A DNA stretch of 60,890 nt, filler included, from Theionarchaea archaeon (GCA_018992565.1; 6 parts of 6 records of this genome joined end to end with filler, not necessarily neighbours in it), one strand, 5' to 3'; positions 17,957 to 59,069 are shown, counted from the first letter of the whole stretch. Program-made: numbers and translations. The notes: a model not told the origin generated them from the letters alone.

Positions 17957-18679
17957 ATGACTGCTATTGAAGTAGTAGATTTGGTGAAGAATTACGGGAA
18001 TATTGAGGCACTGCGAGGAATATCATTCATGGTCAACAAAGGCGAGATATTTGGCCTTATCGGACCCAACGGAGCTGGAAAAACTACGACTCTTCGGATT
18101 GTAGCTACTCTTCTGGAAATCACATCTGGCGCTGTAAAGGTCTTCGAGACAGATGTGAAGAAGGAACCTGAGCAGGTGAGAGAGAAGATCAGCTACCTAC
18201 CAGAAGAAGCGGGAGCGTATAAGAACCTTTCTGGAATAGAATACTTGAATTTCATGGCTCAGTTTTATGCAGATGGCAGAGATATCAAAGAGATTGTGGA
18301 GACTGGGATTTCTATCTCCGGTCTCGGGGAGAGGATTACAGATAAGGTCAACACCTACAGCAAGGGGATGACTCGAAAATTGCTGGTAGCCAGGTCACTG
18401 ATGATGAACCCTCCTCTGGCAATTCTCGATGAACCCACCAGTGGGCTTGATGTTATCAACTCCCAGGATGTGCGGAACCTTATCAAGGAGTATGCCAGGA
18501 AAGGATGTACTGTCTTACTATCCTCTCACAACATGCTGGAAATAGAGTTTCTCTCCAACAGAGTGGCCCTCATCGGTGAAGGCAGAATACTGGATTCAGG
18601 AACGCCAGGTGAGCTCAAGAGCAGATACAGTGCTCAGAACCTGGAAGAAGTATTTCTGGAGGCGGTCTCACATGAGTAA
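17957..18679 (+). CDS. ABC transporter ATP-binding protein (NatA/ABC-2 type)
   Basis: GPNGAGKTT, YSKGM, ILDEPTSG, SSH. Confidence 0.95.
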   Translation: MTAIEVVDLVKNYGNIEALRGISFMVNKGEIFGLIGPNGAGKTTTLRIVATLLEITSGAVKVFETDVKKEPEQVREKISYLPEEAGAYKNLSGIEYLNFMAQFYADGRDIKEIVETGISISGLGERITDKVNTYSKGMTRKLLVARSLMMNPPLAILDEPTSGLDVINSQDVRNLIKEYARKGCTVLLSSHNMLEIEFLSNRVALIGEGRILDSGTPGELKSRYSAQNLEEVFLEAVSHE

Positions 18680-19961
18680 ATTCACTGCAATCATGGTTAA
18701 AGAAATGAAAGACCTGCTGAGAGATCCCAAAGTCGTCGTCGGAATGATCGTGGTACCCCTGGTGCTGTTTCCAGCTATGGGAGCCATGTTCCGCACGGGA
18801 ATGGAATCAGCAGAGAGTGAAATCCAGATCGGAGTCATGAACCAGGACACGGGTCAGGTTTCACAGGACCTGATCCAGATACTGGAAAACAATCCAGGAG
18901 TCAAGCTGTACCAGCCACAATCATCCTCACTGGAGGAAGCGATCCAGGAGGCCCAGACCAATGAGGTCAAGGTGCTTCTGGTGATACCATCAGGATTTTC
19001 TGATAAAATAGAGCACACGACAGGGGCAGAAATTGACATGTATGCGCTGGTTGAAGGGCTGGGGATAAATGAAGTCATCTCCTCGTCTCGAGTAGACGCA
19101 ATTATCCAGGGGGTCAACACACAGCTTTCAAAGAACCTTATTTCAGAGAAAGTCCCTGGAACAGACCCCGGCAATGTCCTTCAACCCATAACGACTAGAG
19201 GATACACAGTGGTGAGAGGAAAAACGGTGAATGTTCCACCTGCACTCATTGCGAGTCTCGTCTCTTCTCAATCCTTCATTGTACCCGTGGTGCTCATGGT
19301 GATGATCATGTTTGTGGCCCAGATGGCAGCAACCTCCATGGCCACAGAAAAAGAGAACAAGACCCTGGAGACCCTGCTGACCCTGCCGGTGAGCCGTCTC
19401 TCTATCCTGGCAGGAAAGATGGGAGGGACTGCAGTGGTTTCTCTGATATCGGCTGTAGCATATATTATTGGGTTCAGCTACTACATGTCCGCTTTCCAGT
19501 TTGGGGAAGTTGAAAGCGCCATAACGCTAAAAGACATTGGTCTCTCTATTACTCCTGTGGGATTCGTGATGCTGGGAATCAGCATATTCATGGCTGTTCT
19601 GGCAGCGCTATCACTGTCCATGGTTCTGGCTGTGTTCACGCAGGATGTCAGGAGTGCTCAGAGCCTGGTGTCTTTCACTATCATGCCGCTGGTGTTTCCT
19701 TCCATGATCTTCATATTCGCAGACATGAATTCCTTGCCTGTGGCATTGAAGTATGTGCTCTTGGCACTGCCCTTCTCTCATCCCACTATTGCTGCAAGTG
19801 CACTGGCTCTGAAAAACTATTCAATCGTTATTGGCGGGATTGTCTACCTGGGTATCTTCACCCTGGTGGTACTGCTCATTGCTGCCCGCATGTTCAACAC
19901 AGAAAGAGTCGTCACAGCAAAGATCACATTCGGGCGTAAAAAGAGCAAGAGCCAACCATAG
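18672..19961 (+). CDS. ABC-2 type permease (NatB-like)
   Basis: KEMKDLLRD, EKENKTLETLLTLPV, multiple TM helices; overlaps ATPase stop. Confidence 0.9.
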   Translation: MSKFTAIMVKEMKDLLRDPKVVVGMIVVPLVLFPAMGAMFRTGMESAESEIQIGVMNQDTGQVSQDLIQILENNPGVKLYQPQSSSLEEAIQEAQTNEVKVLLVIPSGFSDKIEHTTGAEIDMYALVEGLGINEVISSSRVDAIIQGVNTQLSKNLISEKVPGTDPGNVLQPITTRGYTVVRGKTVNVPPALIASLVSSQSFIVPVVLMVMIMFVAQMAATSMATEKENKTLETLLTLPVSRLSILAGKMGGTAVVSLISAVAYIIGFSYYMSAFQFGEVESAITLKDIGLSITPVGFVMLGISIFMAVLAALSLSMVLAVFTQDVRSAQSLVSFTIMPLVFPSMIFIFADMNSLPVALKYVLLALPFSHPTIAASALALKNYSIVIGGIVYLGIFTLVVLLIAARMFNTERVVTAKITFGRKKSKSQP

Positions 19962-20661: not shown

Positions 20662-20978
20662 CAGTTTCACTGGATCTATCTCCTGCATGTGCTCTGACCT
20701 TGTATCATGGAACAACAGAGAAGGCAGCTTCGAGCATCCTGAAAGAAGGACTGAAACCCAAGACCAGACAGAAAGTCCACCTCTCACCAAGCATTGAGAC
20801 AGCATTGGACGTGGGGAAACGACACTGCGAAACCCCTGTAGTCCTGGAAATAAATACCAGAAAAGCACTGGAAGATGGTATCTCCATTCAGAAGGCCAGC
20901 AATGTAGTCTACGTGGCAGACTACATACCTCCCCAGTACATTACAGTCCTCAGGAAGCGGCGATTTTCTACTGAATAG
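20662..20978 (+). CDS. kptA: RNA 2'-phosphotransferase (KptA/Tpt1), C-terminal part
   Basis: YHGT, GLKP..RQKVHLS, VGKRH, VY...IPPQY. Confidence 0.85.
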
Positions 20979-21124
20979 CACCCTTCAGAGTAAGATTTTA
21001 AGATACCTCTTGTTCTCAACAAAGACAGAAAATACATTTCTATCACTTGATTTGGACTAAACCCAAAAATTTATAAGCCATGCTATAAAGAGACGTTTAG
21101 AATCTCTATGACGGAGGTGACACC

Positions 21125-21289
21125 ATGTATGCAGCATTGATCTCAGATGGGATTGAAGGGAACCCAGCTCCTCTCGGGTCATGTATCAATGGAGACGGGC
21201 CAGAGTATGGATTCTACTGCTTCAACCTGGGCATAACGCCAACTGGCGGAGGAAAATGCAAATATGGCTTGCAGAGCATGAACGAATAG
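21125..21289 (+). CDS. Putative RiPP precursor P1, 54 aa: MYAALISDGIEGNPAPLGSCINGDGPEYGFYCFNLGITPTGGGKCKYGLQSMNE
   Basis: Absent from ORF track; TTTATAA box 21070-76, RBS GGAGGTGA 21113-20, T-tract after stop; 3 Cys spaced 12-13 aa; paralog at 58395. Confidence 0.8.
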   Translation: MYAALISDGIEGNPAPLGSCINGDGPEYGFYCFNLGITPTGGGKCKYGLQSMNE

Positions 21290-21406
21290 TACATGTAGGA
21301 GAAACGATTTTTCAGCTCCTTTTTTTCTCTTTCTCATTTGAGGTCAGAATACGGCATGGCTTAACGTCATGGAAACCCTCATATAGGTACATGTTCCCGG
21401 CTTCTC

Positions 21407-22132
21407 ATGATTATCACTGAGAGAGAGGGGATTTGTCCCGCATTGCGCAAGTACTATTCCCGGTTAGCCAGATTCATGATAGCACTTGTGGAAATCCCAG
21501 AGAATGCCATCATTCTGGAAGCAGGGTGTGGTGACGGTGCTTTAACCTGTCATCTTCTTTCGCTCTTGCCAGATCATGTAGTTGTAGGCTATGATTTGTT
21601 TTCGGGCGTCTATGAGGAAAGTCTCAGTGCTTTAACAGGAGCAGTGTCACAGATGAGAGTAATCAGAGGAGACGTGAGAACCATGAGTCTCCATACAGAA
21701 TCTGTGGACCTTGTTATCAGTAATGAATTACTCTGTGACCTCTCCAGGAATGATACCCAGGTGACACTCAATGAGTTCTACAGGATTCTGAGAAAAGGGG
21801 GGACTTTTATTCACGGATGCTTGAGTCCTTATCCAGAAACCAGGGCTCAGGAGCTGGTCTTATTGGCTGACAGTTATTCTGCTGATCCTTTATTTGATCA
21901 CGAATGGTTTTCCCCGCCTGCAGATGAACTGGCAGGAATGGTTCACTCTGCAGGGTTTCGCCAGATCTCTGTGACGTATTTTTCTGATAGCCTGAAGTTC
22001 ACCGGTGATGCAGCTTTCTGCCACTTAGAAGAGTGGGTTCTAAAACCTGAGTTCTTTGAGAAGTATTCCTCAGAGGTCAGGGCCCGCGGGATCGAATATC
22101 CCATGGAGCAGGTAATACACTGCTGTAAGTGA
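21407..22132 (+). CDS. Class I SAM-dependent methyltransferase
   Basis: ILEAGCGDG, GDV, VDLVIS, YRILRKGG. Confidence 0.9.
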   Translation: MIITEREGICPALRKYYSRLARFMIALVEIPENAIILEAGCGDGALTCHLLSLLPDHVVVGYDLFSGVYEESLSALTGAVSQMRVIRGDVRTMSLHTESVDLVISNELLCDLSRNDTQVTLNEFYRILRKGGTFIHGCLSPYPETRAQELVLLADSYSADPLFDHEWFSPPADELAGMVHSAGFRQISVTYFSDSLKFTGDAAFCHLEEWVLKPEFFEKYSSEVRARGIEYPMEQVIHCCK

Positions 22133-22351: not shown

Positions 22352-22717
22352 ATGACATGCAAAGAGATGATTGCTGTCTGTGGATTGGATTGTGAATCCT
22401 GCGACATCAGGAGGGTACCATTTGACTCAGACGCACGTGAACGCATGGTGAAATGGTTTAGAGCACAGGGATGGATTAAGGAGAGTGAGGGTGTTGAAGA
22501 AATAATCAGCCGCAAAATGTATTGCAAAGGATGTCGTGGCGATCGCTCTGTTCACTGGTCACCAGAGTGTCCAATTCTGGTGTGCTGTGTTGATGAGAAG
22601 GGGTTCAAGAGCTGTCATGAATGCAACGACTTCCCCTGTGAAAAGCTGGAAAAGCAGGCTGAACAGGGAGGAAAATATCGCGAAGCCCTTGACCGTCTCA
22701 GAACCATGAAAAAGTGA
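22352..22717 (+). CDS. Cys-rich DUF3795-like protein
   Basis: AVCGLDCESC, CKGC, C.I..CC..KG..SC.EC..FPC. Confidence 0.8.
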   Translation: MTCKEMIAVCGLDCESCDIRRVPFDSDARERMVKWFRAQGWIKESEGVEEIISRKMYCKGCRGDRSVHWSPECPILVCCVDEKGFKSCHECNDFPCEKLEKQAEQGGKYREALDRLRTMKK

Positions 22718-22864: not shown

Positions 22865-23479
22865 ATGGAAGATCTGAAGGGAAGGTATGTTCGCTGGTCT
22901 GAAGCCTGTGTCTGGCAGCCCTTTGGCACTTCTCTGGCCATTCTCAGAGTTCTGGCACCTGATTCTTCGCCCTCGCAGGAAAGCGAAGGGATCAAACTGA
23001 ATGCAACAGGGAAAGATGTGTGGGATCTATGCGATGGTACAAGAACGGTTGACGACATTGTGGCCCAGTTACTGGAAGAATACCAGGGCGAACCAGAAAG
23101 AATCCAGGAAAGTGTGGAAACCATAGTATTGATGTTACAAGAACGGGGGTTCTTAACATGTGAAAGTACTCCTCACCTCTATTCGGTACGTGAGATCCCA
23201 CTCCAGGACTATGCCTGCTGGAATGACACAATCATCTGGAATGAGGTGGAAGGCCAGGTGGTGGCGATGAACAACTCTACAGGAGTCGCTCTTCCAATTC
23301 CCACTGAAGCAGCTGAAATGTGGAAGTTGTGTAATGGTAAAACCGCAGTGGAAGATATTTTTTCCATCCTCAAATCGAAGGGATTAATCACACAAAAGAT
23401 GCCTCTTGCCAAATTTAAATTACTTCTGAAACAGTGGATAAAGCTCAATTTCATTATCCTGAAGGATGAGCCTCTATGA
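22865..23479 (+). CDS. Tandem PqqD/RRE peptide-chaperone protein
   Basis: Two PqqD-like units: LNATGKDVWDLCDGTRTVDDIVAQLLEEY and AAEMWKLCNGKTAVEDIFSIL. Confidence 0.88.
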   Translation: MEDLKGRYVRWSEACVWQPFGTSLAILRVLAPDSSPSQESEGIKLNATGKDVWDLCDGTRTVDDIVAQLLEEYQGEPERIQESVETIVLMLQERGFLTCESTPHLYSVREIPLQDYACWNDTIIWNEVEGQVVAMNNSTGVALPIPTEAAEMWKLCNGKTAVEDIFSILKSKGLITQKMPLAKFKLLLKQWIKLNFIILKDEPL

Positions 23480-23488
23480 GGAGATTGC

Positions 23489-24835
23489 ATGCGTGCCTTG
23501 AAAAAAAGAATTACTGTTGAGTTACCTAGTGAAAAATACCTCCTTATTAACCCTTATTCCGGCCTGGCTGACATCATCGATTCAGAAACCAAGAATCTGC
23601 TGGACTCTGAATCAAGTGATGCAACCTATGAGGTCCTTCGTATTCTCAAATCAAGAGGACACCTGGTAGAAGAGGGAGAAGAAGATGATCTTTTTGAATA
23701 CTTGAAGCTCTATGCACAAGAACTGCACTCAGAGGCCTGCAAGAAGAACCACCACCTCATCATCCCCACCTACCACTGCAATCTGACGTGTCCCTACTGC
23801 TTTCAGAAGCACGTATATCGCAAGCGAGCAAACCTCCACATGGTAATGGATGAACAGACTGTAGATTCGCTCTTTAAGGCCATTCTTTTTCTGGATTCTG
23901 AAACTGAAGAAAAATGCATAGAACTATATGGTGGAGAACCTCTTCAAGTGAGGAATATCTCTATTATAGAGTACATCCTCAGAAAAGGTGATTATAACGG
24001 GTATTCATTTAGAGCAATAACTAATGGGGCTGATTTCTATCATTTTGTCCCTTTGCTATCTGAATTCGATGTCAAGGAGGTTCAAATAACTCTCGATGGT
24101 CCCAGGAACGTGCATGATCAAAGACGATTCAGAAAAGGGGGGACGTTTGATGATATTGTGAAAGGCATTGACCTGGCCCTGGAGCATGACATTCCAATAA
24201 GAATCAGAATCAACGTCGACTATGAAAATATCGATTCTATTCCAGAACTTGCACAGTTCTACATAGAAAAGGGATGGTCCTCAAAGGTGAAGGCCAGCAT
24301 AACCAGTGTCTATGCGTCTGAATGTGTGGAGTACCCTTCTGTCATCCCACTGGAGGACGTTCCCCGGAAGATTATTGACCTGTTCTTCAAAGATGAGAGA
24401 ATGACTGTGTTCTCTGATACCTTCAAGGGGCTCAATTTTCTCCTGGGTCACCTTCTACTTGGAGAAGAATTCCACCACCGCTTCTGGGCGTGTAATGCTC
24501 ATACCACACTCCTCTTCTATGATCCTCTTGGAGATATCTATGCATGTGGTGAAGCTGTCGGACATCCGGAGCATGTCATTGGTAAATACATACCTGCACT
24601 CCGCTTCAATGACACGTACTCTCACTGGCGCAACAGGACAGTATTTGCCATTCCTGAATGCACAGAATGCAACCTGGCATTTTTCTGTGGAGGCGGCTGC
24701 GCCTACAAAGCGTATACAGAAACACATTCTATCTACAGTCCGTACTGCGAAAATGTGAAATTCTCGTTGAACTGTGAAGTTCCCTACCTGTATCATGTAG
24801 CCAAACAGAAAGAAGAGAAGGAGGGTGATCTCTGA
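23489..24835 (+). CDS. Radical SAM/SPASM peptide maturase
   Basis: CNLTCPYC, YGGEP, TNG, QITLDG; SPASM C...GDIYAC...CTECNLAFFCGGGC...C; N-terminal RRE-like segment. Confidence 0.93.
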   Translation: MRALKKRITVELPSEKYLLINPYSGLADIIDSETKNLLDSESSDATYEVLRILKSRGHLVEEGEEDDLFEYLKLYAQELHSEACKKNHHLIIPTYHCNLTCPYCFQKHVYRKRANLHMVMDEQTVDSLFKAILFLDSETEEKCIELYGGEPLQVRNISIIEYILRKGDYNGYSFRAITNGADFYHFVPLLSEFDVKEVQITLDGPRNVHDQRRFRKGGTFDDIVKGIDLALEHDIPIRIRINVDYENIDSIPELAQFYIEKGWSSKVKASITSVYASECVEYPSVIPLEDVPRKIIDLFFKDERMTVFSDTFKGLNFLLGHLLLGEEFHHRFWACNAHTTLLFYDPLGDIYACGEAVGHPEHVIGKYIPALRFNDTYSHWRNRTVFAIPECTECNLAFFCGGGCAYKAYTETHSIYSPYCENVKFSLNCEVPYLYHVAKQKEEKEGDL

Positions 24836-24922: not shown

Positions 24923-26743
24923 ATGTCAAGAATGAAGAGGATTTTTATGATGAAGCTCCATCTGCATGCCAATTTTCCCTATGATTACACCACACCAAAT
25001 GCAGCTCTCGGATATTTGAAATCGTATCTTGCACCATTCAACCATGAGGTAACGAATACATACTGGTATATCCCCCCACGAGAGATTTTTGAGGCCATGC
25101 GTGGGATCTTGGCACGGTTCCAGAAGAGCCGCATCAGCCTCTTTGATCCTTCAATTATCCTCACTGCGTACCTGTCACGGTTCTTTTACAGGGCCCCGGC
25201 ATGCCCCACCATGATCCAATCAATCGTGACCTCCTGTGCATCTCCAGAAGAATTGGAACAGGTTGGATTGTCCTACAAAGGGTTTGTAGATACTGCCCTT
25301 GAGGACATGGCTGATGTAGACATGGCAGGATTCACCCTCAAGTTCTACCAGTGGATTCTGAATTGCTACATCTGGCGCAGACTAAAGCAGCTGAACCCGA
25401 ATATCACTATTGTTATAGGTGGCCTCGATACACGTGAGGAGGCAGTAAAGGCCATGGAGACCTTCAGGGACGTGGACTGCGCCATCTGGGGAGAAGGTGA
25501 ATGTCCGCTGCGAGAGCTGATTACCAGGGATACGGACGGCATGGATGAAGTGCCCCGCCTCATCTACAGGAAGCGCGGTGACCTCTGTATAACTGATATC
25601 ACTACAGAGAGAGTGAGAGAATACCCCTTTGCAGACCATACAGACTACTTTAGACAGCTCAGACAGTTTGATCTGGATATTTCTCCACAGATCCCCATGT
25701 TCACCACCCGCTCCTGCAGGTGGGACAAATGTAAATTCTGCAACGAAAATAAGGGGATCTCCTACTTTGAACGATCAATAGATGAGACTATCAAGGAGAT
25801 AGAATATCAAACCAAGACTCATGGTGTTGACCGGATTGTGTTCCTGGACGCAGATATTGGACGGAAAACTGAGAGAGATTTCAAGAACCTTTTGGAAGGG
25901 CTTCTTCACAGTGTGGATACCAGAGGAGCCCCCTATGATATGGTGGCTGACATATCTCCACAGAGACTGACCAGAGAGACTGTCCAGATGATGAGCAAGA
26001 TCAGGATGGGTGTGCAGATAGGGTTTGAAGCCTTGACAGATTCTCTCTTGAGAAAGATGAATAAGAGGCATTCGTTTCTGGAGAATATCCAGGCTCTCAA
26101 GGTTGCATATGAGTATGGGCTGAAGATGTATGGGCTGAATGTGCTGCGTAACCTCCCGGGGGAGACAGAGCATGAGGTCATGGAGAGTATGGAACAGATA
26201 AAGGGTCTCCGGTTCTTCTTGAGGGAATATCCCCTTCATCTGTCTGAGCTGACACTGTATAAGAGGGCACCCTACTTCAAGGAGATTTCTCCAGAGGAAC
26301 GGGAAACGAGATGGGTTGTCAACTTCCTGTATGATGAGATGTGTCAGCAGGGCCTCCTCAATGAGGAGGGAAGGTGGGACTTTTTTGGGTTCAGGGCACG
26401 GGATTTGATACATCATAACCTGTGGGACCAGGTGGCGACACTGCTGGAACGGGTCCAGTCAGAGACCATTTCGTATACGTGGCAGGAACACGGGGATGGG
26501 AGTGTATTGATTGAGAATAACCAGGTGACTGGGGACAAGAAGTACGTCCTCACCAGGACTGAAACTGACGTTCTGAAGTTCTGTGACAGTGTCGTGTCTT
26601 TAGAACAGGTGGAGGAGAGATTTCCTGATGACGATATTAGTGATATACTCTCACAGCTGAGGAAGGAAGCTTTCCTGTATCTTGATGAAAGGAATCGAGT
26701 AATTTCTATTCTCTCTGCCCGGAAGATTGTCCCAGAAGACTGA
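24923..26743 (+). CDS. Cobalamin-type (class B) radical SAM enzyme, RiPP C-methyltransferase-like, with C-terminal RRE-like wHTH
   Basis: PNAALGYLKSYL, IVIGG, WGEGE, RSCRWDKCKFC (CX4CX2C), QIGFEAL..LL.KMNK; C-terminal LTRTETDVLKFCD. Confidence 0.85.
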   Translation: MSRMKRIFMMKLHLHANFPYDYTTPNAALGYLKSYLAPFNHEVTNTYWYIPPREIFEAMRGILARFQKSRISLFDPSIILTAYLSRFFYRAPACPTMIQSIVTSCASPEELEQVGLSYKGFVDTALEDMADVDMAGFTLKFYQWILNCYIWRRLKQLNPNITIVIGGLDTREEAVKAMETFRDVDCAIWGEGECPLRELITRDTDGMDEVPRLIYRKRGDLCITDITTERVREYPFADHTDYFRQLRQFDLDISPQIPMFTTRSCRWDKCKFCNENKGISYFERSIDETIKEIEYQTKTHGVDRIVFLDADIGRKTERDFKNLLEGLLHSVDTRGAPYDMVADISPQRLTRETVQMMSKIRMGVQIGFEALTDSLLRKMNKRHSFLENIQALKVAYEYGLKMYGLNVLRNLPGETEHEVMESMEQIKGLRFFLREYPLHLSELTLYKRAPYFKEISPEERETRWVVNFLYDEMCQQGLLNEEGRWDFFGFRARDLIHHNLWDQVATLLERVQSETISYTWQEHGDGSVLIENNQVTGDKKYVLTRTETDVLKFCDSVVSLEQVEERFPDDDISDILSQLRKEAFLYLDERNRVISILSARKIVPED

Positions 26744-26893
26744 GCATGTAGTTGCTACTGTTGTATCGGCTTACATCAGACTGTGAGATAGAGGCAGTTC
26801 GAATTATTTGTAGCAGGATGTTCAAAAATTCTGATTCTTACCTGACAAAAGATATATATAGGTGAAGCGTGAAGAGTCAGCAGAGGTGATACA

Positions 26894-27016
26894 ATGGAAG
26901 TCGTACGACTCAACAAGAAGATGTGGACTGATGCTACTGTGGAACCCTTGGATTTCAATCCAGGACCTGCTGTCATCTGCGGCTGCGGTGGCGGCTGCTG
27001 TTATGGCAGATGGTAG
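26894..27016 (+). CDS. Putative RiPP precursor P3, 40 aa: MEVVRLNKKMWTDATVEPLDFNPGPAVICGCGGGCCYGRW
   Basis: Absent from ORF track; own TATA (GATATATATA ~26851-60), RBS GAGGTGA, T-tract ~27050-66; Cys/Gly core. Confidence 0.85.
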   Translation: MEVVRLNKKMWTDATVEPLDFNPGPAVICGCGGGCCYGRW

Positions 27017-27521
27017 TCACTGTAGCGAATGAAGACCTCTGAAACACACCTCTTTCTCTTTTTTTTAATTACTCCGACTCTGACAGCTCTCAAGTCTGTC
27101 CAGGACTGGACCTGCTTCATACTGGAGGCGACATATTCATTCTGATAGAGATTCCATCATTTTCAGGAGCAGTGGGTAGTACACTTCTCTGGCCTGCTTG
27201 GAAAAGGTGCAGTCTGGCTGGAGCAACCTCCCTTTTTCTTGATATGTGTAGTGGCCACATCCTCCGCCACAGATCATGGCAAACTTGCAGTAATGACATG
27301 ATTTCATGTGAAAGATTGTTCTCTTTCTCCATTGGTGATACTTCTGGTTAAATGAAAGATCAGGGTAATATCTCCCAACTGCATGTTGGGGATCACCCAG
27401 AGAATCAGTGCAGAAATAGAGNNNNNNNNNNNNNNNNNNNNNNNNNNNNNNNNNNNNNNNNNNNNTTAATTAATTAANNNNNNNNNNNNNNNNNNNNNNN
27501 NNNNNNNNNNNNNNNNNNNNN

Positions 27522-28771: not shown

Positions 28772-29425
28772 ATGAAAGTGGTGCTGCGTATTGGCGGTTC
28801 TGTTCTGGTACCTTCAGAAATTGATGAAGGAGTCCTTGCAGCCCTGGTGGCCCAGGTCGAAAAAGCCAGGTCAGTCCACTCCCTGTTCCTGGTAGTGGGG
28901 GGAGGCAGGACTGCGCGGAGGTACATTACCGCAGCCAGAACCTACAACACCACAGATGAAGTCCTGGACACCCTGGGAATACTCTCCTCGCAGTTGAACG
29001 CACTGCTGCTCGCCACCTGCATTGGAGGAGCAGAACTGGTGAGAGACATCCATGAAGCTATCCATGCACGGGGGCTCCCCATTCTAGGTGGGACTACGCC
29101 CGGTCAGACTACTGACACGGTGGCAGCTCTGCTGGCAGAGGTGGTCAATGCAGAAATCATGGTGAAGGTGACTCATGTAGGAGGTATTTTTACTGCTGAT
29201 CCTGCACGAGATCCAGGCGCAAAGAAGATTTCAAAGATGAGTTTCAGCCAGCTGGAATCCTTTTCTAGAGAAGAGTTCAAGGCGGGAATTTCATCTGTTA
29301 TTGATCCCGTTGCTGCAGCTATTATCTCGCAGAACAACCTCAAGACTGTCGTAATTGGTGTCGAAGACATGAAAGACCTGGAGAAGGTTCTCACAGGTGA
29401 CCATTCAGGGACTATCGTTGGATAG
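28772..29425 (+). CDS. pyrH: Archaeal UMP kinase
   Basis: RIGGSV, VVGGGRTARRYI, PGQTTD, GIFTADP; divergent from aRF1. Confidence 0.93.
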   Translation: MKVVLRIGGSVLVPSEIDEGVLAALVAQVEKARSVHSLFLVVGGGRTARRYITAARTYNTTDEVLDTLGILSSQLNALLLATCIGGAELVRDIHEAIHARGLPILGGTTPGQTTDTVAALLAEVVNAEIMVKVTHVGGIFTADPARDPGAKKISKMSFSQLESFSREEFKAGISSVIDPVAAAIISQNNLKTVVIGVEDMKDLEKVLTGDHSGTIVG

Positions 29426-31567
29426 ACGTCTTCCTGAAGCTGGTGGTGCACCCGTGTCCTGAGTGGAAATCTGAATTCTCTGGAATCGATACCCCGGGGC
29501 CCAGAAACAGACGATAATGTGGTCTCTGGCAGCAGAGACTGCTGCACTTCTTAAAGAAACGGTAACATATGTTGAAGAGGGTGTCAGTTTCTTGATTAAA
29601 TCACTGTCATTCCAGAGGGTGAGGACAGTACCTGCAGGGCAACACTCCATGTTAATTCTCAGGTACCCCTGATGGTAGTCAGTACGTATGGCATTGGTCC
29701 GGGGACATTCTTTCCAGATCTCAAGAGATGGATCTCCAATGACATGGTAGATTTCCAAGTGATCCTTGACGTAGCGCAGACCTCCACTTAACGTCAGGGG
29801 CAAATATGTCTTGGCATAATTGAGAATATCACCTATTCTGTTGTTTTTCACTGTATAGTTTGCTGTGAATCCTGGAATCCGGGGGATAATCCCCGACCAT
29901 ACAGCATCGAAGAGTGCTTTCATCAAGTCATCATTGAGCCAGGTGTGGGAAGGCCTGGTTGCTGCAATAAGAGATGGGGCACCTCCGTCCATGGAGAGCA
30001 GCTTCTCAGCAAAACACTCCCTGGGCCTCCTGAGGTCAAACTGGCCCGTCAGGCAATTGATGCTGTAGAAGATGGAAGGCGTGTCACTGCTAATCGATTC
30101 AAGGTGAGATATCTTAAATGCGGGGTGAACCCATCCTGCGGGGGATCCGTGATCTCTGTGCCCAACCAGGAGGCACCCTTCAGAGACTGCTTCAATGAGT
30201 TTTTGACTGGCTTCCTCCTCATTGAAAATGTGTGATCTCACCGTCTCGGGTACTGGGCTTCCGTCAACATACTCTCTCATGTCAGGATTGCTACTGACAT
30301 ACACCCGTTCCACTTCAACCCCCAGATCTTCAATGTGAGAAGCTATAGTCTCCATAGTCTTAACGTATGCCCTGTCTTCTCTGCCATCTCGTTTGCCTTT
30401 GTCCTGGAAGTAGGCCGCAAATACCATCTTTCTATAGTAGTGAAGGTCGTCCGGGGGATCTCTCTCATATGAGATTATCCTGTCCACTACAGCCAGTCCC
30501 TGCTCTTCAGTTTGGACAGGAATGCGTCCCACTGAAAGCCAGGGCAGTACATACTGGTCGCTGCGGACTGGATCTTCTTCTGTGCTGTAGTAGTAATCAG
30601 TGATATTGTGGCCTGAAGGGCTCCCTGTAATTTTCTCTGCAGGGATGACCTCAATATCCCCAAATAACAGGACATACTGAAGACGACCTCCTGCAGCTCT
30701 CTTTCTTCTGCGGATATATTCTTTTACAGCGTCCACAGTAGCCCCCACTCGATCTAATGATACCGCCTCTGTGGAAAGTCCCCGCATAGTCTTCCAGTAG
30801 GCCAGCTTACCTGCAGGGTCCCTGAATTGATCGTGGTAGATAATGAGGAGTTCTGGACCCTTTCCCGCCAGGGGGGCTCTTGTCACAGGAGAAGGTACCT
30901 CTCCTCTGCCTGCAATTCTCCGCAGGGGATTTAGAAAGAGATTTTCATAGGCTTTCCTGTTTGTTGCAGTCTCTATAGATTCCCCTTCCCCAGGAGATGG
31001 ACTGAGATGGATGGTTACCGTAATGGAACTGAACCCCACCAGTCTTCTACGAGCGGGATTGTACTGGAGAGGTCTCACATGGATGAGCAAAGCGTGATAG
31101 CCATCAATAGAGAGGGGACCTGTCACCTCCACAATGGTGTCAGGATACAGCCTGTCGATCTTGTAGAAGTCTTTGTCATACTCGAATTGGTTCTTCTTCT
31201 TGCTGTCCACCAGCAGCTCCTGAGCAGGTAGAATCAAGACATGGTCAAAATAGACTGGATTTTCTGGTTCCACAGTTACGCTGTAGCGGCAGCCACGAGG
31301 AATCTGCACATACCGTCCAAGAGAGGGCAGGAGTGGTTTGCCGCTCTCTGCCAGAAACTGGGTGTGAGGAATATTCACCTGGTTGAAAGGGATGACGACG
31401 CCCTCGACGGTGCGTGAATCGTCTGACAGGAAAAACCCTGAAAATGTATAGGCAACTACAATTTTCTGTTCCCGTTCTTCTACGGTTACCAGAGGCTCCT
31501 CCCCGTGAAGACTCATAACATATTCAAAAGGGAGACCTTCCGGCTTCAATGATTTAAACTCCCTCAT
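29405..31567 (-). CDS. Gingipain-like C25 cysteine peptidase with propeptide
   Basis: GKPLLP propeptide, PLQYNP, YVLLFGD, TDYYY, VGRIP, HRDHG (His), SINCLTG (Cys), YHVIGDP. Confidence 0.9.
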   Translation of the reverse strand: MREFKSLKPEGLPFEYVMSLHGEEPLVTVEEREQKIVVAYTFSGFFLSDDSRTVEGVVIPFNQVNIPHTQFLAESGKPLLPSLGRYVQIPRGCRYSVTVEPENPVYFDHVLILPAQELLVDSKKKNQFEYDKDFYKIDRLYPDTIVEVTGPLSIDGYHALLIHVRPLQYNPARRRLVGFSSITVTIHLSPSPGEGESIETATNRKAYENLFLNPLRRIAGRGEVPSPVTRAPLAGKGPELLIIYHDQFRDPAGKLAYWKTMRGLSTEAVSLDRVGATVDAVKEYIRRRKRAAGGRLQYVLLFGDIEVIPAEKITGSPSGHNITDYYYSTEEDPVRSDQYVLPWLSVGRIPVQTEEQGLAVVDRIISYERDPPDDLHYYRKMVFAAYFQDKGKRDGREDRAYVKTMETIASHIEDLGVEVERVYVSSNPDMREYVDGSPVPETVRSHIFNEEEASQKLIEAVSEGCLLVGHRDHGSPAGWVHPAFKISHLESISSDTPSIFYSINCLTGQFDLRRPRECFAEKLLSMDGGAPSLIAATRPSHTWLNDDLMKALFDAVWSGIIPRIPGFTANYTVKNNRIGDILNYAKTYLPLTLSGGLRYVKDHLEIYHVIGDPSLEIWKECPRTNAIRTDYHQGYLRINMECCPAGTVLTLWNDSDLIKKLTPSSTYVTVSLRSAAVSAARDHIIVCFWAPGYRFQRIQISTQDTGAPPASGRRLSNDSP

Positions 31568-34172: not shown

Positions 34173-34961
34173 ATGAAAGAGAATTCAAGGGCTAGTTCAG
34201 AAAAGCAGTTTCAGAACCTCAGGAGATTCAATGCTTTCATGGGTGTCCTCCATCTAGTTCAGGGCATACTCATGGTGGTCATCAGCAGCGACTTCTCTTT
34301 GCCTGTGACTACTACCTATCTGCAGTTCAATTCGGAAACCAGCAGTCTCATACCGGTTACAGAGACGCTGTATCACCTGCCGCTGGGTCCTGCAGTTGCC
34401 CTCTTCCTGTTCATGTCAGCTACTGCACATTTTGTCGTGGCCTCCCCCCAAGGGTTCCCTATGTACGTCAGGAATCTGACGTCGCACATGAATAGCTTCC
34501 GCTGGATCGAGTACGCTTTCAGTGCCTCATTGATGATCGTGTTGATTGCCATGCTTGTAGGGATCTATGACGTTGGAACACTCCTGGCTCTGTTTACGCT
34601 GACAGGGGTTATGAATCTCATGGGATACATGATGGAACTCCATAATCAGAGCACTGAAAAGACGAGCTGGACGTCTTATATCATCGGATGCATTGCAGGA
34701 GTTGTACCCTGGATTGTGATTTTTATATCACTGCTGGGCGCTTCATCCACAGAGGGGACGTCAGTTCCCACCTTTGTCATAGCAATATTCATCTCGATTG
34801 CTGTGTTCTTCAACCTCTTTGCTGTGAATATGGTCCTTCAGTACAAGAAAGTGGGCAGATGGAGGGACTACCTCTACGGAGAAAAGATGTACATCGTTTT
34901 GAGCCTTGTTGCTAAGTCACTGCTAGCGTGGCAAGTATTCGCAGGGACACTGCGTCCGTAG
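34173..34961 (+). CDS. Heliorhodopsin
   Basis: LRRFN..MGVLHLVQG, NSFRWIEYAFSASLM (counterion Glu), YIVLSLVAKSLLAWQVF (retinal Lys). Confidence 0.93.
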   Translation: MKENSRASSEKQFQNLRRFNAFMGVLHLVQGILMVVISSDFSLPVTTTYLQFNSETSSLIPVTETLYHLPLGPAVALFLFMSATAHFVVASPQGFPMYVRNLTSHMNSFRWIEYAFSASLMIVLIAMLVGIYDVGTLLALFTLTGVMNLMGYMMELHNQSTEKTSWTSYIIGCIAGVVPWIVIFISLLGASSTEGTSVPTFVIAIFISIAVFFNLFAVNMVLQYKKVGRWRDYLYGEKMYIVLSLVAKSLLAWQVFAGTLRP

Positions 34962-58224: not shown

Positions 58225-58394
58225 ACTTTCACCTGACAACTATACATCGGTAGTTATCCCTGTAATACGATATTCTTAAAGGTTTGCAGAAAAAGACACA
58301 TGACAACGCTGCAGGTAGGGCCTTGATGTGTGCGTGCGAAACCCTTATGTACAGCGGCACATTAGTAGTACAAAATAAGACAGGAGGTGAATAC

Positions 58395-58556
58395 GTGTTT
58401 GCAAGGCTGGTAACACCTGGATTGGATATAGAAATAACAGAACAAGCATGTGGTGGTGGGAATACGCCCAGTGGTGGTGGGAAGTGTGCTCGTGGCTTTT
58501 CCCCATACTGGCCCGGTGCTTGTCGCTCAGGGAGTTTCCCCACTGTGCCTCCCTGA
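58395..58556 (+). CDS. Putative orphan RiPP precursor P2, 53 aa: MFARLVTPGLDIEITEQACGGGNTPSGGGKCARGFSPYWPGACRSGSFPTVPP
   Basis: RBS GGAGGTGA then GTG; three CxxGxxP units at exact 12-aa spacing; homologous to 21125-21289. Confidence 0.8.
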   Translation: MFARLVTPGLDIEITEQACGGGNTPSGGGKCARGFSPYWPGACRSGSFPTVPP

Positions 58557-58757: not shown

Positions 58758-59069
58758 GTGCCCATACATGAAGTGAGAATAACAGTCCTGAAACGAATGC
58801 ATCCGTCAGAAGTCTTCGAGAACCCCCCTGTCACACCAGCAGAACCCATGGGGGCATGTGGAGTACTGAAAGATGGCCAACAATTCGTAAGCAAAGGCGG
58901 GTCAATGCCTGAAGGATTTCCCTGCACAAGTGCCTGGATTGACCTGTTTCCCAGCGTTCGAGTACTATCCTTCGGTGGAGACATGCCCTGGTTCAAAGAG
59001 AAAGGCGTTTCCGTCGACTGCTGTCATGATGGATTGAGGCCTGTCATATTCAGATTAGAAAGACTCTGA
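58758..59069 (+). CDS. TIGR04076-like conserved Cys protein
   Basis: C....DGQ.F, PEGFPC..AW, CCHDGLRPVIFRLER. Confidence 0.85.
   Translation: MPIHEVRITVLKRMHPSEVFENPPVTPAEPMGACGVLKDGQQFVSKGGSMPEGFPCTSAWIDLFPSVRVLSFGGDMPWFKEKGVSVDCCHDGLRPVIFRLERL

Follow-up and report, generated by a model that had tools for sequence, protein, structure and literature searches.

We identified the 54-residue peptide P1 as the product of a genuine small gene and as the representative of an undescribed peptide family that has so far been encountered in no sources other than Theionarchaea-like genomes and metagenome records. The best reading of this peptide is that of a RiPP-type precursor in which a radical SAM/SPASM enzyme, perhaps acting in trans, would cross-link the Cys residues, a reading that we put forward tentatively and at somewhat less than an even chance. 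A RiPP operon with such an enzyme lies 3′ of P1, and P1 more likely stands outside this operon than within it. P1 was located in a window (the whole stretch of DNA analyzed, 60,890 nucleotides with filler included, from Theionarchaea archaeon GCA_018992565.1) that also contained a second family member, P3, and a further small Cys-bearing peptide, P2 (Table 1).

Table 1. Features of the window, with positions counted from its first letter.
Feature	Position	Strand	Remarks
RNA 2′-phosphotransferase (Tpt1/KptA), C-terminal part	20700-20978	+	PF01885, 59 bits; 5′ part N-masked
TATA-like box TTTATAA	21070-21076	+	Putative, read directly; ~50 nt 5′ of P1 start
Shine-Dalgarno-like GGAGGTGA	21113-21120	+	Read directly; ends 4 nt 5′ of P1 ATG
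P1, leader-like part, residues 1-19	21125-21181	+	N-terminal motif conserved, linker variable
P1, core-like part, residues 20-54 and stop	21182-21289	+	Three units, each opening with Cys (12, 13, and 10 residues)
T-runs T5 and T7	21308-21312, 21320-21326	+	Read directly; 19-37 nt past P1 stop
Class I SAM methyltransferase	21407-22132	+	Methyltransf_11, 56 bits; 117 nt 3′ of P1
DUF3795 Cys-rich protein	22352-22717	+	PF12675, 59 bits; conserved backbone
Tandem double RRE (PqqD-like) protein, 204 residues	22865-23479	+	TATA-like box upstream
Radical SAM/SPASM maturase with N-terminal extension	23489-24835	+	2.2 kb 3′ of P1
B12-binding radical SAM protein, RiPP C-methyltransferase-like	24923-26743	+	TIGR03975, 147.6 bits (cut-off 281.85)
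P2, 40 residues, Cys/Gly-rich C-terminus	26894-27016	+	GAGGTGA at 26883-26889, then 4 nt; T8 terminator
ORF of 56 residues, SPASM C-terminal end only	27137-27307	-	TIGR04085, 22 bits, E 1.4e-4
P3, GTG start	58395-58556	+	Member of the commonest, best-conserved subfamily
TIGR04076-family protein	58758-59069	+	69 bits (cut-off 33); adjoins P3

The P1 gene and its peptide family

The P1 ORF (window 21125-21289, plus strand) translates as MYAALISDGIEGNPAPLGSCINGDGPEYGFYCFNLGITPTGGGKCKYGLQSMNE followed by a stop, exactly the 54 residues quoted by a preceding reading of the DNA (hereafter the sequence-only reading). The Cys period of 12-13 amino acids with Gly at +3 or +4, which that reading had described, was likewise recovered: Cys residues occupy positions 20, 32, and 45 (spacings of 12 and 13), Gly follows them at +3, +4, and +3, and Pro follows Cys 1 and Cys 2 at +6 and +7, respectively. 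An overlapping ORF of 79 amino acids is also present at 21181-21420, and no Shine-Dalgarno-like run was seen in the bases read upstream of its start at 21181, in agreement with the earlier remark that this frame has no ribosome-binding site. P1 itself is preceded by Shine-Dalgarno-like and TATA-like sequences and followed by two T-runs that likely form an archaeal terminator.

When P1's own residues were shuffled 200,000 times, Gly at +3/+4 after every Cys occurred in 4.2% of the shuffles and both Cys spacings fell within 11-14 in 1.9%. The two properties coincided in 0.08%, a share that dropped to 0.0035% with at least two Pro at +6/+7 as a further requirement. Conservation across the family is a stronger argument for the pattern than these shuffles. 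The exact sequence is already present in NCBI/nr and Logan as a nameless predicted protein, and it was identical in contigs of three runs from three studies, one of these runs possibly being the source sample. Additionally, near-identical DNA of a 6.2-kb stretch was found in 20 DNA runs from seven studies, none of the 23 runs listed being an RNA run; the strain therefore appears widespread, with some of the runs possibly representing the source sample. The 20-run samples came from estuary, marine sediment, mangrove, and soil.

P1 matched no family of Pfam or NCBIfam at E ≤ 0.01, and the ESM Atlas contains its exact sequence without a model or usable look-alike. AF2 gave a mean pLDDT of 41 and no autonomous fold, which fits an unstructured precursor, although as weak evidence because the alignment was shallow.

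The family comprised 22 distinct peptides sharing the N-terminus M-[FY]-A-x-L-[IV]-x-x-G, followed by a variable linker and then by a core of two to five copies of a unit of about 12 residues, C-x2-G-x2-P-x2-G-x2. In an eight-row alignment M1, A3, L5, and G9 were invariant, and the linker to the first Cys varied. Of the 70 Cys-started units in the 22 distinct members, 54 had Gly at +3. Pro occupied +6 in 43 of 68 cases, +9 was Gly or Pro in 45 of 65, and 27 of 48 spacings placed the following Cys at +12. Positions +3, +6, +9, and +12 after Cys were mostly G, P, G/P, and C, with diverse residues between them, and therefore every third position is small (Cys, Gly, or Pro). No position after Cys held a conserved side-chain acceptor, Asp being found at +4 in eight of 70 units. 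Judged from these sequences, the family appears to have the build of RiPP precursors, i.e., a short ORF, a conserved leader, and a Cys-bearing core. That P1 would be a RiPP precursor made of leader and core is the explanation that we favor, if with reserve and just short of even probability.

Several searches recovered the members. A word-indexed search with P1 returned one cluster, 69% identical and with three members; these close homologs (P0002-P0004, 69-70% identical) have a nearly constant core and drift over the first 19 residues, such that a hand count of P1 against P0002 gave 31 of 35 identical residues in the core and eight of 19 in the leader. Among 1.84 billion representatives, a search with a profile (E ≤ 0.001) yielded six matches: P1 itself, three new members, and the two sequences P0016 (2006 amino acids, 14 stretches) and P0017 (a 155-amino-acid tandem repeat), which proved on reading to be unrelated repeat proteins. 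In a set of 5.8 billion, 16 clusters among 89 candidates belonged to the family, all of them unnamed or "hypothetical" and one labeled Theionarchaea. The nearest named relative was a Theionarchaea MAG, and among the 132 genomes of its class the family was present in G033 only, in six scattered copies. This genome search gave 18 places, of which seven were read (the other 11 were at E 0.016-0.52): five were in G033 and all of these were family members, while the remaining two (G130, G124) fell within a 412-amino-acid ORF. A scan of JGI metagenomes with the P1 profile returned a sole locus, a chance match antisense to a UvrD-like helicase gene. Against NCBIfam and Pfam at E ≤ 10, only two of 13 family members touched a model, ScmA, at the chance level of E 0.29.

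P3 has the ribosome-binding geometry of P1, with GGAGGTGA at 58383-58390, 4 nt before its start, and on direct reading its period-3 pattern is unbroken over 36 residues. Between the P3 core and that of a copy in G033 (C215), pN was 0.17 and pS 0.65, indicating purifying selection on the core of this subfamily, and the P3-type core was strongly conserved across at least nine clusters. The TIGR04076-family protein that adjoins P3 is 68% identical to one at G033:C215 2592-2918, which also stands beside a P3-type gene. Moreover, the spacer between the RDD and TIGR04076 genes measures 518 nt in the window, with P3, versus 159 nt without a peptide gene in another genome, G001. All-vs-all BLASTP of ORFs of at least 70 amino acids from six G033 loci and the window returned only this TIGR04076 pair and unrelated housekeeping matches.

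The neighboring RRE-SPASM operon and its substrate

Residues 40-97 of the RRE protein matched PqqD (PF05402) with 76 bits (cut-off 23.4), its second half matched the same model at E 0.016, and the two halves matched each other (BLASTP E 2e-4). Its AF2 model (pLDDT 86) presents an identical secondary-structure pattern twice, and the best Foldseek match was the lasso leader-binder TbiB1 (TM 0.77-0.79, target length), along with ThcOx and also PqqD. By profile and model, the product of 22865-23479 thus has a PqqD-type winged-helix fold with a three-stranded sheet.

The SPASM enzyme contains CX3CX2C at 97, CX12GX4C at 335, and CX2CX5CX3C at 391 and scored 46.9 bits against TIGR04085 (cut-off 27). 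It stayed below the curated scores of the named thioether-synthase families in NCBIfam (CefB 141 bits against a cut-off of 600, TIGR04463 136 against 525, PapB 101 against 340, SCIFF maturase 91 against 425), and the QhpD model gave 60 bits (cut-off 453). Its best solved relative was CteB (5wgg; E 2.9e-21 over residues 70-430). By sequence comparison it is closest to the ranthipeptide synthases, which are Cys-directed maturases, and its nearest characterized relatives (CteB, the TIGR04463 family) are thioether formers. A search of genome contigs with the enzyme returned only a 1.6-kb Theionarchaea contig.

In Pfam, 24923-26743 matched Radical_SAM, with a weak B12-binding match, and a 38%-identical relative occurs together with P2-like precursors in G001. 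Downstream, 27137-27307 covers positions 59-88 of the 93 in the TIGR04085 profile and has a 56%-identical piece in G001:C1. This ORF probably represents a conserved gene remnant, and the bases adjoining it are N-masked. The RRE, SPASM, B12 radical SAM, and P2 genes together establish that a real RiPP operon is present.

The genes between P1 and this operon have a history of their own. G001 is the closer relative of the window genome (PyrH 84%), and there the orthologs of the methyltransferase and DUF3795 genes adjoin each other immediately downstream of an MTHFS-Tpt1 gene; G033 keeps Tpt1 followed by the methyltransferase. The window Tpt1 C-terminus is 71% and 61% identical to the MTHFS-Tpt1 C-termini of G001 and G033, the methyltransferase orthologs (66% in G001:C17, 56% in G033:C243) both directly follow Tpt1, and the DUF3795 ortholog (81%) adjoins the methyltransferase ortholog in G001:C17. 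On these gene orders, the class I methyltransferase is part of a conserved backbone rather than a demonstrated RiPP tailoring enzyme. The spacer between Tpt1 and the methyltransferase is 86 nt in G001, without P1, versus 428 nt in the window, with P1. Given the methyltransferase-DUF3795 backbone in G001 and the Tpt1-methyltransferase order in G033, P1 was therefore set into an older backbone. G001 yielded no P1-like gene by profile or pattern search, and since its backbones are intact and its spacers short, it is without P1 and P3 at the syntenic sites.

The G001 orthologs of the operon (RRE 73%, SPASM 78%) are on another contig than Tpt1-methyltransferase-DUF3795. DNA similarity between the window and the G001 operon begins exactly at the RRE ATG, 22865, and a TATA-like run precedes this ATG in both. 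The sequence-only reading had placed P1 at the head of the cluster, a position that was not supported, as the methyltransferase-DUF3795 backbone intervenes and operon homology starts only at the RRE ATG. That a 78% ortholog of the SPASM enzyme persists in G001 without any family member further argues that the conserved job of this enzyme is independent of the P1 family.

P2 is most likely the cognate substrate of the operon. P2 homologs were present in ENA and JGI records, and codon reading of a relative in run X20 revealed eight ORF differences, seven of them synonymous and one Met-to-Leu. One cluster that mixed P2 with unrelated proteins of ~1400 amino acids was treated as a clustering artefact. 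In G001, 12 matches to the SPASM enzyme were found, with Cys-periodic or Cys-rich peptides directly upstream, and a P2-like peptide lies directly 5′ of two SPASM paralogs in G001:C18. Of the three G001 clusters examined, two begin with P2-like Cys-rich peptides and the third with a Cys-periodic peptide that has a nine-residue repeat, such that peptides of the P2 type, not the P1 type, are found beside this enzyme family. One feature, of little weight as evidence, is common to P1 and P2: N-P-x-P-x3-C just before the first Cys, noted on direct reading.

The three G001 loci, L025 (C10), L026 (C18), and L027 (C2), carry tandem sets of two or three SPASM paralogs; one is headed by a P2-like peptide, one by six copies of a nine-residue Cys unit, and one by a peptide with a Cys-rich tail. 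L025 additionally encodes a tandem RRE fused to an AhbD/NirJ-like radical SAM/SPASM protein (616 residues).

Linkage was equally scarce across the family. No radical SAM gene was found within 5 kb of any of the seven further family loci whose surroundings could be read, some of which have flanks of 0.4-1.5 kb on a side, leaving P1 as the one locus in eight that lies within this distance of such a gene. In G033:C8, two radical SAM genes are situated ~7 kb from the family gene, behind housekeeping genes. We also scanned 72 records (379,718 bases) for peptides with at least two C-x2-G-x2-3-P units: none was encountered in SPASM-containing loci, the matches being confined to family members and one antisense artefact. 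The scan is conservative because the number of strict units in P1 is just one. When the RRE protein (four-row alignment) and the P1 family (13 rows) were modeled as a complex in a single uncontrolled prediction, the score was 0.01 against a mark of 0.32, a value that weighs neither for nor against binding.

Taken from gene order and conservation, membership of P1 in the operon is more likely not the case than the case, and we regard it as doubtful that the neighboring SPASM enzyme acts on P1. Of the earlier precursor-and-cluster reading, the precursor-like gene and a SPASM enzyme 2.2 kb 3′ with an RRE protein stood, while the link between them did not. The same reading had staked itself on homologs co-occurring with the SPASM enzyme, and the 0 of 7 loci within 5 kb count largely against it.

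Characterized analogs and competing explanations

The closest characterized analog of P1 is CrpA/CrpC from Methanococcus voltae, in which CrpC (TIGR04463) is reported to install ranthionine links on the repeat-bearing CrpA (PMC13692751). The two systems share an archaeal origin, a SPASM enzyme with an RRE, and a repeated Cys unit behind a leader-like N-terminus; they differ in that CrpA has at least 100 residues, with ten copies of a 17-residue unit and C-X-X-Q/D motifs, whereas P1 has 54 residues, three units of about 12 residues, and Gly at +3. CrpA is moreover described there as encoded beside its enzyme, while most P1 relatives adjoin none, and TIGR04463, though the second-best NCBIfam match of the enzyme in the window, remained far below its cut-off (136 bits versus 525).

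In the SCIFF/CteB system (ranthipeptide; PDB 5wgg/5why), the substrate is likewise a short Cys-containing precursor. P1, however, matches neither the SCIFF model nor any other precursor model, and the maturase reached 91 bits against 425. The Cys spacing and Gly/Pro scaffold of P1 also set it apart from SCIFF peptides. PapB/freyrasin and the CefB "Cys-every-fifth" peptides (NF047865, NF038107) resemble P1 in having one Cys per short repeated unit, but their repeat length is five versus 12 here and their enzyme models stayed below the cut-offs (600 for CefB, 340 for PapB). The freyrasin motif is C-x3-D, whereas the P1 family has no conserved Asp acceptor (Asp at +4 in eight of 70 units). The prochlorosins of marine cyanobacteria, which are class II lanthipeptide precursors with many scattered genes, a shared leader, and one enzyme acting in trans, resemble the P1 family in their dispersed copies and shared leader. 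They belong to another domain of life, their leader type and chemistry differ, and the trans enzyme of P1 is hypothetical; in addition, prochlorosin cores differ from one another, while one subfamily core of the P1 family is conserved rather than hypervariable. QhpC/QhpD, finally, combines three Cys thioethers in a small subunit with a SPASM enzyme and an RRE (PMC13692751). QhpC belongs to an enzyme complex as one of its subunits and has Asp and Glu as acceptors, unlike P1, and the QhpD model matched our enzyme at 60 bits against 453. By analogy with these systems, P1 would work like a ranthi- or sactipeptide precursor without being a member of a named family, a filing by likeness that we chose because no curated family model was reached.

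Under the favored explanation, maturation as a RiPP-type precursor, the N-terminal motif of P1 would serve as the handle for an RRE recognition domain, and a radical SAM/SPASM thioether synthase would act on one Cys per unit, in a loop shaped by the Gly and Pro residues. Up to three cross-links might form, and the leader would be cut near the junction of G-[SA] with C. Because the family genes are scattered, we propose that maturation would occur mostly in trans, the adjacent RRE-SPASM operon being one candidate source of the enzyme; support for Cys-directed maturation comes from the abundance of such maturases in these genomes. Extended to Theionarchaea as a whole, this would mean an archaeal counterpart of the prochlorosins, in which many dispersed precursors have the same N-terminal handle and a core of period-3 Cys/Gly/Pro dodecads and a single member of the expanded SPASM maturase family converts them in trans to small multi-thioether peptides, with the family gained and lost between lineages and the conserved P3 type performing a housekeeping and not an antibiotic role, a picture that we consider rather improbable in its entirety.

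Four other explanations were weighed. In a strict cis arrangement, the tandem RRE would bind the P1 leader and 23489-24835 would make three thioether rings. Although P1 is on the same strand as the RRE gene and 1.6 kb upstream, the intervening methyltransferase and DUF3795 genes form a conserved backbone unrelated to the operon, homology with G001 starts at the RRE ATG, and P1 ends in a terminator of its own, while a separate TATA-like box precedes the RRE gene. The two recognition domains of the RRE protein, in an operon flanked by two different peptides, would suit this arrangement, as would the N-P-x-P-x3-C stretch in both P1 and P2 and the action of relatives of the SPASM enzyme on Cys; G001, however, has the orthologous enzymes and no family member, and with two family genes per 60 kb a closeness within 2 kb is not rare. 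On balance, we judge the cis arrangement unlikely. Far less probable still is a different chemistry, in which either the B12 radical SAM enzyme (24923-26743) would C-methylate P1 or the class I methyltransferase would methylate it. The latter gene immediately adjoins P1, but it is conserved beside Tpt1 in G001 and G033 without P1; the operon does include a relative of RiPP-type C-methyltransferases, but this B12 enzyme scored below its family cut-off and its 38% relative in G001 goes with P2-like precursors. Furthermore, what the family conserves is Cys, Gly, and Pro, which are not typical methyl acceptors.

The peptides may alternatively act unmodified, either by binding thiophilic metals or Fe-S fragments via their two to five Cys or by forming a small polyproline II-like structure, in which case the neighbors would be irrelevant. 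This is the main rival, though a less probable one, and in its favor stands the period-3 Cys/Gly/Pro pattern with diverse positions in between, unbroken for 36 residues in P3; it would also suit family genes that lie among housekeeping genes with no conserved enzyme neighbor, and a P3-type core conserved across at least nine clusters, unlike in arms-race peptides. However, recognition or processing seems needed to account for a conserved N-terminal hexapeptide that a variable linker separates from the Cys part, AF2 finds no fold (pLDDT 41), and the Cys content of P1, 3 of 54 residues, is far below that of metallothionein-like peptides. Scarcely credible, finally, is that the ORF is not a gene and its periodicity is due to chance: its mere 54 codons and the overlapping 79-codon frame would allow this, but a ribosome-binding site and a terminator are present, 22 distinct relatives have the same layout, the sister subfamily is under purifying selection, and motif and spacing coincided in just 0.08% of shuffles.

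Implications and other features of the window

To our knowledge, few archaeal RiPPs have been characterized so far. The literature, as partly available, yielded no publication linking Theionarchaea to RiPPs, and the papers mentioning both Theionarchaea and radical SAM dealt, by their titles, with methanogenesis remnants and annotation pipelines. A 2025 survey of archaeal RiPPs, in its available part, made no mention of Theionarchaea, and the supplements of these papers may list such clusters. As the representative of an undescribed peptide family, P1 is relevant under either of the main outcomes. Should its members be matured, they would constitute a new Cys-periodic class of precursors with a compact and easily synthesized scaffold and would allow trans maturation to be tested in Archaea; should they not be, they would represent small period-3 Cys/Gly/Pro peptides of a new kind. 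For genome mining, the obvious assignment would make any small Cys peptide encoded close to a SPASM enzyme the substrate of that enzyme, an assumption not borne out here by synteny.

Several further features were observed. An ABC ATPase and an ABC-2 permease (17957-19961, plus strand), a possible exporter, are located 1.2 kb 5′ of P1, and an inositol-monophosphatase fragment and Tpt1 lie between them and P1. A gingipain-like peptidase C25 with a propeptide domain (29405-31567, minus strand) is encoded 2.4 kb past P2; it stands behind the aRF1 and uridylate kinase genes and is conceivable as a leader peptidase, unlinked to the operon. N runs near 20.6 kb, 27.42-27.5 kb, and 54.7 kb mask gene ends, namely the 5′ part of Tpt1, the 3′ end of aRF1, and the end of a 900-residue repeat protein. 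At two G033 loci, L092 (C91) and L081 (C243), many short intergenic ORFs have the same few residues in common, which points to a scattered repeated palindromic DNA element. The genome of this sediment archaeon also has a heliorhodopsin gene, located in the window at 34173-34961 (plus strand; PF18761, 342 bits).
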